NCBI RefSeq assembly: GCF_000175255.2
Contig: NC_017262.1
Location: 810,001 to 842,000, forward strand
DNA length: 32,000 nucleotides
From: Zymomonas mobilis subsp. mobilis ATCC 10988
GTDB taxonomy: Bacteria > Pseudomonadota > Alphaproteobacteria > Sphingomonadales > Sphingomonadaceae
Reading direction: 5' to 3'
Position numbers and translations under genes: made by a program. Positions 18,177-22,936 of the stretch are shown piece after piece (the stretch's first letter is position 1; the number at the start of each line of letters is the position of its first letter). The notes beneath the pieces are model-generated. The model was not told the DNA's origin. It did not search any database and saw only the letters and a program-made list of their open reading frames with translations.

Positions 18177-19136
18177 ATGACGGATAATCGCGTTTTAAAG
18201 TTGTTTAAAAAACGACTGACAAAATTGGCTATAGTCGCCGCTATGCTGACCCTGCCCCAACCGCTTTATGCTTGGGGCATGGAAGGCCATGAAGCCATCG
18301 CCGCTTTGGCATGGAAATATATGACGCCGACAACCCGCAAAAAGGTCAATGCTATTCTGGCAATGGATCACGATAGATTGACCGAACCGGACTTCATGTC
18401 TCGCGCCACATGGGCAGATAAATGGCGTTCGGCTGGACATGGTGAAACCGAACCGTGGCATTTTGTTGATATCGAAATCGACAACCCCAATCTTGTCACG
18501 GCTTGTGCAGCGGCCTCCAACCGTTCCAATCCGATGAAAAATGGCGGCGCACAACCTTGCGTCGTCAGTCAGTTAGACCGCTTTGAAAGAGAACTTTCCA
18601 GTAAACAGACCTCCGATCAAGATCGGGTCTTAGCGCTGAAATATGTCCTTCATTTTGTCGGTGATCTTCATCAGCCGCTCCACGCCGCCGATCATGATGA
18701 TCGGGGCGGCAACTGCGTCAAAGTCTCGATCAATAATGCAAGGTCGCTCAACCTTCACAGCTATTGGGATACCTATGTGGTCAAAGAAATTGACCCCGAC
18801 CCGCAACATCTTGCTGATAGCTTGAAGAAGGAAATCTCGCCGGAAGATAAAAAATCTTGGGTTCTCGGTGATAGCAAGCAATGGGCAATGGAAAGTTTCC
18901 AACTCGGTAAACGCTATGCCTACAGCTTCAATCCCCCCGCTGGCTGCGATGCAACACGCCCCCCCATTCCGCTTTCTGCAGGCTATGACTCAGCCGCTCG
19001 AAAAGTCGCCGCTTCACAGCTCAAAAAGGCAGGGGTGCGTCTGGCTTATATCTTAAACCATCGCCTGCGCTCTATTCCGCTTTCCTATTTTCTTCAGGCA
19101 CAAAAACAGGACGCCGCCGCCAATAATAACGGATAA
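18177..19136 (+). CDS. Secreted S1/P1-family zinc nuclease
   Basis: The leader ends ...PLYA|WGMEGHEAIA, giving the mature N-terminal Trp-Gly-x-x-Gly-His zinc ligand block. Also present are HFVGDLHQPLH and DRGGN. It starts 18 nt after the receptor's stop codon. Confidence 0.88.
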   Translation: MTDNRVLKLFKKRLTKLAIVAAMLTLPQPLYAWGMEGHEAIAALAWKYMTPTTRKKVNAILAMDHDRLTEPDFMSRATWADKWRSAGHGETEPWHFVDIEIDNPNLVTACAAASNRSNPMKNGGAQPCVVSQLDRFERELSSKQTSDQDRVLALKYVLHFVGDLHQPLHAADHDDRGGNCVKVSINNARSLNLHSYWDTYVVKEIDPDPQHLADSLKKEISPEDKKSWVLGDSKQWAMESFQLGKRYAYSFNPPAGCDATRPPIPLSAGYDSAARKVAASQLKKAGVRLAYILNHRLRSIPLSYFLQAQKQDAAANNNG

Positions 19137-19165
19137 GCCTGTTTCAATAATTTTCATCTCAATCA

Positions 19166-19215
19166 TTTTATAGAATGGCCCGTATGTTATTCCGACTATG
19201 GGCTATTCTATAAAA
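19166..19215. repeat. Imperfect inverted repeat (16-nt arms, one G/T mismatch, 18-nt spacer) at the GC-to-AT transition
   Basis: TTTTATAGAATGGCCC (19166-19181) against GGGCTATTCTATAAAA (19200-19215). No U run follows on either strand, so it is not a canonical intrinsic terminator. Confidence 0.6.
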
Positions 19216-19434
19216 GCTCGAATCCATGCGTTTATATCCTGCGTATACGTAGGAATTAGGCATTGCATACCCATTTGAATTTTCTCAAAATCTTTTCACT
19301 AACAACATTATATTTTTAGACACATCCAAAAATACACAAACAATACCAATAAAAAAGAAGAAAGAATGCAAAAAATTTATTTATTTATTTAAATATTTTT
19401 ATATAATACTAAAAAAGTAATTTTGAGATTCATC

Positions 19435-20097
19435 ATGATTTATTTTATTTTTACAATAATTATTTTACTATGTTTTGCAGGTATACTTGTTCCTTATATT
19501 AAAGGAGTAAATAGAGGCCATTTTATAGCAGCTACTATAGGTGTAGCATTTTTATATGGAACTTTTACAAGCAACAAAGAAGAACAGAAAAAAGATAGAA
19601 CAATTTCAGAAAACAACACAGAATTTTCTAATAAAGTACAGGTTACACCAAATTCTAATGATAAAAAAGTAGAATCTTCACCATGGGTTTATAGTGAAGG
19701 CAAAGATGAAATGCGTGGAACCACCTCTTATTTTGCATCAATCACCAGCCTAAACAATGTATATTTCCCATTTCCTTATGATACATCATATGCTCATGTA
19801 ATGATTAGAAGAAGACCTAAAGATGGATTGAATATACTATTTTCAGTAGATTCAGGGCAAATACTCTGTCATTCTTTCTCAAGGAGTTTTTTTTCAGTAA
19901 AATTTGATGATAAACCCATTCAAAAATTTAAATGTTCAAGTTCTGATTCAGGTAGATCTGATATATCTTTTATTGAATCTGCAACCTCATTTTTGAAACA
20001 AATAAAAAATTCTAAAAAAATGATTATAGAAGCGCCATTTTATGAATCTGGCAACCAACAATTTACATTTAATACAAAAGATTTAAAATTTGATTGA
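19435..20097 (+). CDS. Hypothetical membrane-anchored protein (orphan, AT-rich)
   Basis: A 220-aa open frame in DNA that I hand-counted at ~12-25% G+C on sampled lines. Stop codons should be frequent in such DNA, so the length argues for real coding. Two N-terminal hydrophobic helices (IYFIFTIIILLCFAGILVPYI and HFIAATIGVAFLYGTF) precede a Lys/Ser/Asn-rich soluble domain. I recognise no family. Start is ATG 19435 or TTG 19423, with a weak RBS. Confidence 0.6.
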   Translation: MIYFIFTIIILLCFAGILVPYIKGVNRGHFIAATIGVAFLYGTFTSNKEEQKKDRTISENNTEFSNKVQVTPNSNDKKVESSPWVYSEGKDEMRGTTSYFASITSLNNVYFPFPYDTSYAHVMIRRRPKDGLNILFSVDSGQILCHSFSRSFFSVKFDDKPIQKFKCSSSDSGRSDISFIESATSFLKQIKNSKKMIIEAPFYESGNQQFTFNTKDLKFD

Positions 20098-20105
20098 ATA
20101 GGATT

Positions 20106-20314
20106 TATAACTGCCGCACAGGCAGCTTAGAAACATAAAATTTATCTATGATGCCTATGATACTGGTTCACTGCCGCGCAGGCAGCTTAGAAAATTAAAG
20201 GAAACCCATTTTCCCGCCTTGTCTTGTTCACTGCCGCACAGGCAGCTTAGAAACTTGATGGAAGTTTACGGGATTACAATACAGTCGTTCACTGCCCCAC
20301 AGGCAGCCTCCAAC
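20106..20314 (+). CRISPR. Type I-F CRISPR mini-array: 4 repeats and 3 spacers, with no adjacent cas genes
   Basis: 28-nt repeats at 20106, 20166, 20226 and 20287. R2 and R3 read GTTCACTGCCGC(G/A)CAGGCAGCTTAGAAA. R1 has TATAA in place of GTTCA. R4 is degenerate (GTTCACTGCCCCACAGGCAGCCTCCAAC). Spacers are 32, 32 and 33 nt. The CTGCC-N5-GGCAG hairpin is intact in all four. The repeat matches the canonical I-F (Cas6f) repeat family. Confidence 0.9.
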
Positions 20315-20436
20315 ATAAAAGCATTTAAAAACAACCACTTAACTACCAATATATTATACCCTTTAAAAAATATTATACATTTTTTCAAAGATTTAGGTTG
20401 ACGAAAGCCAAAAATCCGCGCATTTGCGCTTGAGGT

Positions 20437-20510
20437 GGCTCGATGGCGGAGTGGTTACGCAGAGGACTGCAAATCCTTGCACGCCGGTTCGATTCCGGCT
20501 CGGGCCTCCA
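20437..20510 (+). tRNA. tRNA-Cys (anticodon GCA)
   Basis: Hand-folded 74-nt cloverleaf. The acceptor stem is GGCTCGA/TCGGGCC (one G-T pair). The anticodon stem is GAGGA/TCCTT with loop CT-GCA-AA. The T arm is GCCGG-TTCGATT-CCGGC, and the 3' CCA is encoded. Confidence 0.9.
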
Positions 20511-21352: not shown

Positions 21353-22936
21353 ATGGCCATAAATAAGGAAAGAGACGAACCCTTTTCTTATTTATGGCAA
21401 ATTCTTTTATTTTTGACTGATCTGCCCTTGCAGAAAAGGACAAGCCTTGCTCAAAGATGCCGCATGACTGTGATGATCGACATGGGAAAAGATCCCAAGG
21501 GACAAGTTGTCCCGATGGATCTCGAAGAATTGCTGGCAACAAGATTGTTGGTTCAGGGTAATTCCGGTTCCGGTAAGTCCCATTTATTGAGGCGGATGCT
21601 GGAAAAAAGCGCCCGTTTTGTGCAACAGATTGTCATTGATCCCGAAGGCGATTTCGTCACCCTCGCAGAACGCTTTCCTCATGTTGCAGTCGAAGCAGCG
21701 GCTTATAATGAATCCGAAATTCGGGTTTTGGCGCAAAGAATTCGTGAACATCGCGTTTCCGTGGTGCTTAATCTCGAAGGTCTTGATGTCGATAACCAGA
21801 TGAAATGCGCGGCGTGGTTTCTGGCAACGCTTTTTGATGCTCCGCGCGATCATTGGTATCCAGCAATTGTCGTTGTGGATGAAGCCCAGATATTCGCTCC
21901 CGCCCAAGCAGGAGAAGTCTCGGACGAAGCACGCCGTCTATCTCTCGCGGCTATGACAAATCTGATGTGCCGTGGCCGGAAAAGAGGCCTTGCCGGTGTC
22001 ATTGCAACCCAACGTCTTGCCAAATTAGCCAAGAATGTTGCCGCCGAAGCCTCAAATTTTCTCATGGGGCGTACTTTTCTTGACATCGATATGGCGCGGG
22101 CAGCCGATTTGCTCGGCATGGATAGAAGACAAGCCGAAAGCATCCGCGATCTTGAAAGGGGCCATTTTCTCGCCCTAGGGCCTGCTTTATGCCGCCGCCC
22201 TATTGCGGTCAAAATTGGGGAAGTCGAGACTAAGAGCCGGACAGGCGGATTTAAACTGATGCCGCTCCCCGACAGCAAAAATAGCAATCCCGAAGATTTG
22301 CTCTTCTCTGAACCAGAAGAACCGGCTTTACCTTTGGCCTCGCCGGAACCACCTCCACCGCCGTCATCCAGTCAATTGATGGAATTGCTACAAAAGGAAA
22401 AGGAAGAAGAGGCGAAAATAGCCGAGGCAGAAGCCGCCGAAAATCCGGTCGATAATAGCCAGAAAGAAGCGCTCATTGATGCCCTACTTTCCAGCATCGT
22501 CGAAGAAGAAGAAAATGCTTACCGTCAAGCCAATCTGCTCTATCCCGAATTTACAATCGGTTGTCGGATGCATGGCCTATCCACTCCGCCTTTGGATTTA
22601 ACCGCCTTCACCAAAAGGCTGACTATCGCCAAGGCAGGGCTTAGCAATGACGACTTACAGGATGAATTGTGGCAACCAGCGCTTAAGGCAGCCAGTATCC
22701 TAGAAGACGATATACAAGCGGTGTTCTTGTTCTTGGCAAAAACCGCCAAAGAAAATGCCCCCTGCCCTGATGATGAAATGATTGCCCGTATTTATGGCAC
22801 GCGCTCGGCTGGGCGTGCCAGACGGCTGATCGGCTATATGGAAAATCAAGGCATTATCGCTATCAGAACCGATTTTGGCGGACGGCGCAGCATTACTCTT
22901 CCGGCTTTAGGCTGGACGACCAGCACAGCCGCCTAA
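21353..22936 (+). CDS. HerA/FtsK-superfamily (DUF87-like) P-loop ATPase with an acidic/Pro-rich linker and a C-terminal putative winged-helix domain
   Basis: Walker A LLVQGNSGSGKSHLL, then VIDPEGDF, Walker B AIVVVDEAQIFAP, then GVIATQRLAKL. Residues ~310-390 are low complexity (EPEEPALPLASPEPPPPPSS...KEKEEEAKIAEAEAAE). The C-terminus IARIYGTRSAGRARRLIGYMENQGIIAIR looks like a wHTH. The start is uncertain: in-frame ATGs lie between 21353 and 21515, and none has a clear Shine-Dalgarno (SD) sequence. Confidence 0.7.
   Translation: MAINKERDEPFSYLWQILLFLTDLPLQKRTSLAQRCRMTVMIDMGKDPKGQVVPMDLEELLATRLLVQGNSGSGKSHLLRRMLEKSARFVQQIVIDPEGDFVTLAERFPHVAVEAAAYNESEIRVLAQRIREHRVSVVLNLEGLDVDNQMKCAAWFLATLFDAPRDHWYPAIVVVDEAQIFAPAQAGEVSDEARRLSLAAMTNLMCRGRKRGLAGVIATQRLAKLAKNVAAEASNFLMGRTFLDIDMARAADLLGMDRRQAESIRDLERGHFLALGPALCRRPIAVKIGEVETKSRTGGFKLMPLPDSKNSNPEDLLFSEPEEPALPLASPEPPPPPSSSQLMELLQKEKEEEAKIAEAEAAENPVDNSQKEALIDALLSSIVEEEENAYRQANLLYPEFTIGCRMHGLSTPPLDLTAFTKRLTIAKAGLSNDDLQDELWQPALKAASILEDDIQAVFLFLAKTAKENAPCPDDEMIARIYGTRSAGRARRLIGYMENQGIIAIRTDFGGRRSITLPALGWTTSTAA

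Follow-up and report, generated by a model that had tools for sequence, protein, structure and literature searches.

The window analysed here is a 32,000-nucleotide (nt) stretch of Zymomonas mobilis subsp. mobilis ATCC 10988 (contig NC_017262.1, positions 810,001 to 842,000), and our subject within it is an AT-rich patch of about 1.3 kb (19137 to 20436 in window coordinates) that lies between an S1/P1 nuclease gene and a tRNA-Cys gene. Four parts, all on the + strand, make up the patch: an intergenic region that holds the nuclease terminator and the upstream region of the following gene (19137 to 19434; G+C content, 0.27); a gene for a 220-amino-acid (aa) protein (19435 to 20097); a small type I-F CRISPR array, whose first repeat frame begins 8 nt past the stop codon of that gene; and an AT-rich trailer of 122 nt (20315 to 20436) that includes the upstream region of tRNA-Cys. 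A first-pass annotation made from the sequence alone had described the AT-rich patch, the 220-aa open reading frame (ORF) with two N-terminal helices, the array 8 nt past its stop, and the adjoining tRNA-Cys, all of which we confirm; its three hand counts of G+C (0.60, 0.12, and 0.25) are reproduced exactly. Measured per 200 nt, G+C falls from 0.55 at 18900 to 19099 to 0.175 at 19300 to 19499 and runs at 0.24 to 0.34 across the ORF, so that the patch (0.18 to 0.34) stands out from surroundings of about 0.5, the low-GC span extending from 19137 to about 20100. The ORF itself has a G+C content of 0.28, and of 0.14 at third codon positions (versus 0.45 to 0.54 at the third positions of five neighbouring genes).

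The best explanation for this layout, and one that we consider probable, is that a rearrangement joined a leader-deleted array of a known I-F family to a gene whose family, of phage type, is known but uncharacterised. On this reading the locus displays the decay of an array, with the gene as its chance neighbour, in place of a new gene linked to CRISPR; the main value of the analysis lies in correcting what had appeared to be a new CRISPR-linked membrane gene.

The CRISPR array

The array consists of four 28-nt repeats and three spacers of 32, 32, and 33 nt. The repeat core occurs four times, versus 0.01 occurrences expected by chance, and comparison with Rfam finds CRISPR-DR4 at each of the four, on the + strand (50.1, 46.9, 34.2, and 20.9 bits). 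The repeat is the Z. mobilis/Pectobacterium I-F repeat as quoted in PMC6868425; the stem of its Cas6f stem-loop (CUGCC-N5-GGCAG) is intact in 4/4 repeats, as are the 8-nt handles (CUUAGAAA). Both in its repeat and in its regular, strain-variable spacers of about 32 nt, the array is of type I-F.

Repeat 1 (TATAACTGCCGCACAGGCAGCTTAGAAA, 20106 to 20133) has TATA in place of its 5′ GTTC and is recognisable only from 20110, which corresponds to position 5 of the Rfam model (the match spans positions 5 to 28), with the Cas6f hairpin and handle retained. It is reached through a junction, ATAGGATTTATA (20098 to 20109), that leads from the stop codon to the recognisable part of the repeat and resembles neither the canonical leader nor the sequence of subsp. 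francensis. Spacer 1 (20134 to 20165, 32 nt) occurs only in the window and in one other contig (L002); repeat 2 (20166 to 20193) is full length, with the loop variant GCGCA; spacer 2 (20194 to 20225, 32 nt) is followed by repeat 3 (20226 to 20253), which is the canonical I-F repeat GTTCACTGCCGCACAGGCAGCTTAGAAA and gives the 50.1-bit match; and spacer 3 (20254 to 20286, 33 nt) is identical to spacer 5 of a leader-bearing array (L003). The terminal repeat (20287 to 20314) has a degenerate 3′ end and is an apparent hybrid, in which a canonical 5′ part is combined with the CCCCACAGGCAGCC of the terminal repeat type found in contig L004. No target was found for any of the three spacers, either by blastn in PLSDB plasmids and INPHARED phages or by seed-tolerant exact patterns in IMG/VR. 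Over its initial 16 nt (CATAAAATTTATCTAT, 20134 to 20149), spacer 1 agrees at 14/16 positions with CAAAAAATTTATTTAT in the upstream region of the gene (19369 to 19384), the rest of the spacer being unmatched; the likeness is probably due to chance in AT-rich DNA.

The array is already catalogued: it fits, in length, spacer count, and 24-nt consensus, the “CRISPR3” entry for ATCC 10988 in S1 Table of PMC5919020 (830110 to 830314, 204 bp, 3 spacers, consensus ACTGCCGCACAGGCAGCTTAGAAA). Its closest counterparts are the chromosomal I-F arrays of Z. mobilis (CRISPR1 to CRISPR4 of ZM4, Zheng et al. 2019, PMC6868425; “CRISPR3” of ATCC 10988 and “CRISPR2” of strain CP4, PMC5919020), with which it shares the 28-nt repeat, the 32- to 33-nt spacers, and the degenerate terminal repeat. 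It differs from them in that it has no leader, its first repeat is without the 5′ GTTC, and a gene ends 8 nt upstream, a neighbour of which the accessible portions of PMC6868425 and PMC5919020 make no mention.

None of the ten ORFs that were scanned in the vicinity of the array is a cas gene. Array decay is known in general from degenerate or orphan arrays whose leader or cas context has been lost. Like them, the window array is short, lies far from cas genes, has a truncated first and a degenerate last repeat, and offers no identifiable spacer targets; unlike them, it belongs to a strain group reported to have a cognate I-F system (PMC8088579), so that it may still guide interference, and coding sequence, instead of random intergenic DNA, stands where the lost leader would be. 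The I-F Cas3 of the “Drainas” group is 97% identical to that of ZM4 (PMC8088579), and strains of the ATCC 10988/“Drainas” group therefore probably have an I-F system.

Leader-bearing and leaderless versions of the locus

A look-up with the YbaK-like protein encoded nearby led to the same locus in many strains, and 24 contigs were read. L002 is strain uvs51, a derivative of ATCC 10988 (PMC8088579), whose flanks are identical to those of the window and which has the same gene, array, and junction. L003, L004 (strain CP4, with 15 further similar places), and L005 are without the gene at the locus: after the nuclease stop codon they carry a 13-nt tandem repeat, a leader of about 280 nt that includes a match to the integration host factor (IHF) consensus, an intact first repeat, and arrays of one to seven spacers. 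The earlier statement that a gene takes the place of the leader is borne out by these three contigs, where a canonical leader and an intact first repeat occupy that position, and the synteny comparison that the first-pass annotation had proposed finds the interval from the nuclease to tRNA-Cys without the gene patch in most subsp. mobilis strains. Between the nuclease stop codon and the array, the AT-rich upstream region and gene have nothing in common with the leader haplotype; the intergenic region at 19137 to 19434 is wholly missing in leader-bearing strains and 71 to 76% identical to its counterpart in subsp. francensis. The tandem repeat unit, AAAGGCTCGGCTC, is perfectly repeated directly after the nuclease stop in leader-bearing strains only (L004, 2190 to 2356; L003, 2155 to 2217; and L005), with 12.8 copies in CP4 versus 4.8 in L003; neither the window nor francensis has it.

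Every strain examined has the degenerate terminal repeat and the 122-nt trailer (the latter is also present in francensis, at 0.80 identity), and the array sits in a syntenic chromosomal context in all of them. Over eight loci, 17/18 distinct spacers are confined to one arrangement (counting the window and L002 as the same), and one is common to different arrays. Because spacer 3 of the window is spacer 5 of L003 and the terminal repeat and trailer are shared, the window array and the leader-bearing arrays are, on sequence comparison, the same array lineage. The coordinates of L004 are those of “CRISPR2” of CP4 (PMC5919020), and their check places the CP4 array at the same chromosomal locus as the window array. 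The counterpart in ZM4 is probably “CRISPR2” of Zheng et al.; an identification with “CRISPR1” of ZM4, suggested by the CATAGG repeat variant, was dropped, the coordinates in PMC5919020 pointing to an 8-spacer array near 1.24 Mb. Leader-bearing and leaderless versions of one I-F array make up a natural within-species polymorphism, and the locus could serve to test the part of the I-F leader in expression versus adaptation, the native Z. mobilis system being already in use for genome engineering.

The leaderless junction is found in a second background. L008 has the identical junction with a different single spacer and an L004-type distal end; its nuclease single-nucleotide polymorphisms are of the L004/L005 type, yet it shows 2 differences from the window over the 970-nt AT-rich segment. 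The junction haplotype may have moved between strain backgrounds, or the arrays may later have been reshaped by repeat-repeat recombination, which the hybrid terminal repeats indicate to be common at this locus. A four-gamete argument for recombination, built on the proximal and distal array ends, was dropped; the distal types are derivable by repeat-repeat deletion. No match was found to the junction sequence in JGI metagenome contigs, or to the conserved 3′ stretch of the gene (described below) in JGI metagenome contigs and IMG/VR.

In the AT-rich segment of the window there is no similarity to the canonical leader (local score against the L003 leader, 27; shuffled sequences, 23.1 ± 2.6), and the junction ATAGGATTTATA, compared with the end of the L003 leader as a possible remnant, does no better than shuffles, of which 713/1000 reach its score. 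No IHF consensus occurs in 19137 to 20436, whereas L003, the control, has both an IHF match (AATCAACAACTTA, about 90 nt 5′ of repeat 1, as in the other leader-bearing strains) and an intact first repeat of the GTTCA type. Repeat 1 of the window starts with TATAA and repeat 2 with GTTCA; therefore, spacer 1 was not added by copying the present repeat 1. The breakpoint falls inside repeat 1, at repeat position 4/5, 8 to 12 nt past the gene stop. In the type I-F system of Pseudomonas aeruginosa, integration requires IHF folding of a leader of ~150 bp as well as the 5′-GT of the first repeat, and it is abolished when the leader is scrambled or the GT is changed to AA (10.1101/2023.05.26.542337). 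The combination typical of a type I-F leader (an AT-rich leader with an IHF site, followed by a first repeat that begins 5′-GT) is absent from the window, and, since I-F integration needs both the IHF-folded leader and the 5′-GT, the array would, by analogy, be frozen for adaptation and take up no new spacers.

There is no terminator-like site between the gene stop and repeat 1, and the best sigma-70-like match in the region (TTTACA-16-TAAAAT, 10/12; 20062 to 20089, + strand) has a predicted start at about the stop codon, just 5′ of repeat 1. The array probably yields three CRISPR RNAs (crRNAs), either via read-through from the gene or from this promoter-like site; Cas6f could still cut the transcript into crRNAs because all four hairpins and 8-nt handles are intact.

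Subspecies francensis (L001/L036, for which the strain name is given in PMC8088579, Table 1, with L037 as a further genome) carries this AT-rich gene as well, at the same site between the nuclease stop and tRNA-Cys, and has no array; it is reported to be without a homologue of the ZM4 Cas3 (PMC8088579). The nucleotide identity between the two subspecies is 0.85 for the gene and 0.74 to 0.87 for flanking core genes, and the ratio of nonsynonymous to synonymous substitution rates (dN/dS) of the gene is 0.34 overall and 0.25 in its C-terminal domain. On these comparisons, the gene is old, real, and coding, and predates its junction with the array. The alternative that the first-pass annotation had set against its own reading, an ordinary I-F leader, is contradicted both by this clear coding signal and by the lack of similarity to the canonical leader. 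In francensis, the gene is followed by GCAGCTTTATCACA, which resembles the last 12 to 17 nt of the terminal repeat, and then by the shared trailer; because this terminal-repeat-like sequence is kept before the trailer, gene and array probably coexisted at the locus before the two subspecies diverged.

L037 has an intact gene, whereas L001, the francensis type genome, is one base short in a poly-A run (L001 5950 to 5962, window 19660 to 19670), which splits the gene into ORFs of 79 and 128 aa. In L037 (~4466) the run is in frame and the start ATG has changed to ATA, leaving a conserved upstream TTG as the start codon; the difference between the two in the poly-A run may stem from a slippery tract, from a sequencing error, or from the gene having recently become a pseudogene. 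On either side of the gene cassette in francensis lies a copy of an 11-nt direct repeat, ATATGGGCTAT (L001 5498 to 5508 and 6403 to 6413), and the left copy in the window lies at ~19197 to 19207; this left copy is at the same time the 3′ arm of the hairpin in the nuclease terminator (an inverted repeat 3′ of the S1/P1 nuclease gene, with arms at 19166 to 19184 and 19197 to 19215). The repeat might be an old insertion scar, although a repeated 11-mer in 1.6 kb is not significant alone.

The 220-aa protein and its family

The gene starts with ATG and has its stop codon at 20095 to 20097; an alternative TTG start at 19423 would give 224 aa. Its product has a transmembrane hairpin at the N terminus, followed by a linker of low complexity, and ends in a conserved, beta-rich C-terminal domain of ~140 aa. 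In the AlphaFold2 model, the N-terminal helices occupy residues 2 to 21 and 27 to 42, and the C-terminal domain is modelled at a predicted local distance difference test score (pLDDT) of ~96. In Acinetobacter homologues, a zinc ribbon stands in place of the first transmembrane helix, so that the window protein differs from these zinc-ribbon-plus-one-helix forms in having a hairpin as its anchor; from the positive-inside rule and the comparison with the zinc-ribbon forms, the C-terminal domain is probably periplasmic.

The gene had been called an orphan, a description that does not hold. A first homologue search returned 91 relatives, among which those of Sphingomonas and Sphingopyxis are 40 to 46% identical over the full length, and an exhaustive profile search reached 4282 representative clusters at E ≤ 1e-3. 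The profile phrog_1848, a PHROGs family of unknown function, is matched by 43/43 aligned family members sampled and by the window protein itself (E 7.6e-9; residues 72 to 217 on profile positions 16 to 152 of 166). No model in Pfam, NCBIfam, or PADLOC matches the protein (in Pfam, none at E ≤ 1), and a search of its sequence profile against PDB gave no meaningful match. Among solved structures, the best Foldseek match to the C-terminal domain is IalB, the invasion-associated locus B protein of Bartonella (PDB 3dtd; 141 aligned columns, probability 1.00); this is a weak match (E 7e-3; TM-score normalised to the target [TMt], 0.51 to 0.54; root mean square deviation, ~5 Å; 9 to 11% identity; no Pfam match), and the likeness is that both are small, beta-rich, envelope-associated alphaproteobacterial domains. 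The stronger structural matches are uncharacterised phage proteins, namely, A0A8S5RM77 (E 4e-9, TMt 0.71) and proteins of phages RB16 and KP15. The family is large, uncharacterised, and common to phages and bacteria, and offers a high-confidence predicted structure where Pfam has no model.

Homologues in Acinetobacter, Psychrobacter, Raoultella, and Rahnella lie inside siphovirus-like prophage tail modules, adjoining tape-measure or tail-tip genes, which is the classic moron position. Those of sphingomonads are, in the annotated contexts, stand-alone chromosomal genes. The window gene differs from the tail-module morons in the same way as the sphingomonad genes, being chromosomal and standing alone, with no phage genes as neighbours: a location inside a prophage and between structural genes is seen only for the gammaproteobacterial homologues. 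A composition of its own, the other mark of a moron, is seen in every locus examined, the G+C content of the gene lying 3 to 16 points below that of its flanks in 22/22 homologue loci from reference genomes. At none of these 22 loci is there a CRISPR array within 6 kb, and at none does the gene adjoin tRNA-Cys. In our reading, the gene is of phage-moron type, and its product is an inner-membrane-anchored protein. The putative role of this protein may be superinfection exclusion or envelope modification, a guess by analogy with membrane morons in tail modules.

One part of the gene is conserved beyond the rest. Near its 3′ end, the stretch from 19961 to 20076 (+ strand) has 4 mismatches to francensis in 116 nt, versus a gene background of 17%; it is one of only three stretches that are at least 95% identical in 10.6 kb, and its conservation equals that of tRNA-Cys. 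Within it, 1/39 third codon positions differ, versus 40/175 in the rest of the gene (P 5e-4, for a segment picked after the data were seen), and family-wide protein conservation is no higher in this stretch than elsewhere. Folding of 19955 to 20135 on both strands yields z-scores of −1.2 and +0.1 for RNA structure, and Rfam recognises only tRNA and CRISPR repeats over the region. The stretch could represent a tract of gene conversion, or else a promoter or regulatory element embedded in the gene; conservation at its synonymous sites hints at an embedded cis element.

Origin of the junction and flanking genes

In the simplest scheme, the ancestral order would have been nuclease-gene-leader-array-tRNA. 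In the ATCC 10988/“Drainas” group, a deletion of the leader and of leader-proximal units would have joined the array to the resident gene; most subsp. mobilis strains would have lost the gene, and francensis the array. The gene-bearing haplotype would be the ancestral one because its left boundary is common to francensis, and we infer that the junction arose by deletion from such a nuclease-gene-leader-array ancestor. The leaderless array could then still be expressed, through read-through or from the promoter-like site within the last 36 nt of the gene, while acquisition would have stopped.

Several points weigh against this scheme. Gene, leader, and array were found together in no strain among the 24 contigs, and the proposed ancestor is hypothetical. 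Leader-bearing strains differ from the window from the first base past the nuclease stop; therefore, two independent deletions or a replacement are needed. The presence of the same junction in L008, with its different single spacer, calls for later repeat-repeat deletions or recombination, or else the junction-bearing array kept evolving. Simple decay leaves the near-identity of the last ~110 nt of the gene unexplained, and this could mark a cis element acting on what lies downstream. The table in PMC5919020 lists cas1, cas3, and csy1 to csy3 for ATCC 10988 and does not list csy4 (Cas6f); the missing entry may be an annotation gap, or the array may not be processed at all, and, if csy4 is truly absent, no array in ATCC 10988 would be processed. 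Lastly, transcription, crRNA processing, and the loss of adaptation are each inferred from sequence features.

In another account, the junction came from recombination and not from deletion in place, the gene haplotype having been imported into an array strain, or the leader segment (13-nt tandem repeat plus leader) having replaced the gene in most strains, in either case with one crossover at or in a CRISPR repeat. We consider this unlikely. It would account for two haplotypes with no common sequence between the nuclease stop and the array, and it fits both L008, where nuclease polymorphisms of the L004/L005 type accompany a segment 2 differences per 970 nt from the window, as expected from exchange between strains, and the hybrid terminal repeats, which signal frequent repeat-repeat recombination; however, the left boundary of the gene haplotype is common to the outgroup francensis, so that the gene-bearing state is ancestral there, GCAGCTTTATCACA and the trailer in francensis imply that gene and array probably coexisted before the split, and no donor for the leader segment was identified. 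The near-identical stretch bears on a further account, which we hold to be rather unlikely: that gene and array are functionally coupled, the 3′ end of the gene serving both as coding sequence and as a promoter for the leaderless array and possibly for tRNA-Cys, in one selected transcription unit in which a Cas6f cut at repeat 1 sets the 3′ end of the messenger RNA (mRNA). Improbable, too, is the specific version in which the last ~110 to 140 nt of a phage-derived gene, as conserved coding sequence and outward promoter or regulatory DNA, took over the expression role of the lost leader, with mRNA and crRNAs issuing from one unit and the mRNA 3′ end set by a Cas6f cut at the truncated repeat 1. 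Coupling would explain why 19961 to 20076 is nearly identical between subspecies, third positions included, where protein conservation is not raised, and it agrees with the retention in francensis of the TTTACA-16-TAAAAT hexamers and their spacing while the spacer between them differs, with the lack of a terminator-like site from the stop codon to repeat 1, and with the persistence of the junction in two strain backgrounds. Yet francensis keeps the conserved stretch without an array or an I-F Cas3, so that any such element would not be specific to the array; the two hexamers fall in conserved codons (QFTF and LKF), promoter-like sites number 6 versus 6.6 in shuffled sequences, and the gene is dispensed with in most strains.

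The first-pass annotation had read the patch as a mobile-element cargo gene with its own mini-array, or the gene as a new CRISPR-associated membrane accessory or effector, and this we regard as very improbable. The strong AT-richness of the gene, the phage association of its family, and the G+C deficit at all 22 homologue loci would suit such a reading, but in two subspecies the gene is found at one and the same chromosomal site and has diverged to the degree that core genes have, no integrase, transposase, or other mobility gene is present among ten flanking ORFs that were scanned, and the patch lies 5′ of tRNA-Cys and not at the 3′ end of the tRNA. Nor is the array a travelling one: it is the strain-variable chromosomal array of the species, with a terminal repeat, a trailer, and one spacer that recur in leader-bearing chromosomal arrays, and its spacers are unmatched in plasmid, phage, and viral-contig collections. 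As to a CRISPR-associated function, the annotation had asked whether the ORF always adjoins an I-F array, and it does not: francensis has the gene without one, 0/22 homologue loci have an array within 6 kb, and three annotated contexts beyond these 22 are ordinary chromosome or prophage tail modules. Two related candidates were rejected, namely, a mini-array borne by a mobile genetic element or virus (syntenic chromosomal context in all strains; no spacer target in plasmids, phages, or IMG/VR) and a tRNA-associated genomic island (patch 5′ of the tRNA, no integrase in the neighbouring ORFs scanned, and no repeat of the tRNA sequence). The suggestion of a remnant that recombined at a repeat fares better: the breakpoint does lie inside repeat 1, which brings this idea close to the leader deletion that we favour.

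The genes around the patch encode a TonB-dependent receptor, the S1/P1 nuclease, the YbaK-like editing protein, and a HerA-like ATPase; tRNA-Cys (GCA) itself, at 20437 to 20510 on the + strand, is also matched by Rfam. The nuclease (18177 to 19136, +) has its nearest relatives outside Zymomonas not in sphingomonads but in acetic acid bacteria (Komagataeibacter, 62%; Gluconacetobacter; and Acetobacter), a kinship that may reflect exchange among bacteria of one fermentation niche. The HerA-like ATPase, a 527-aa DUF87 protein encoded just 3′ of the YbaK-like gene (21353 to 22936, +), matches the PADLOC models HerA (E 2e-17) and mad8 (E 1e-16). Within its gene, 21410 to 21529 is at least 95% identical to francensis, and because the gene is present and conserved in all strains, it is probably a core gene.

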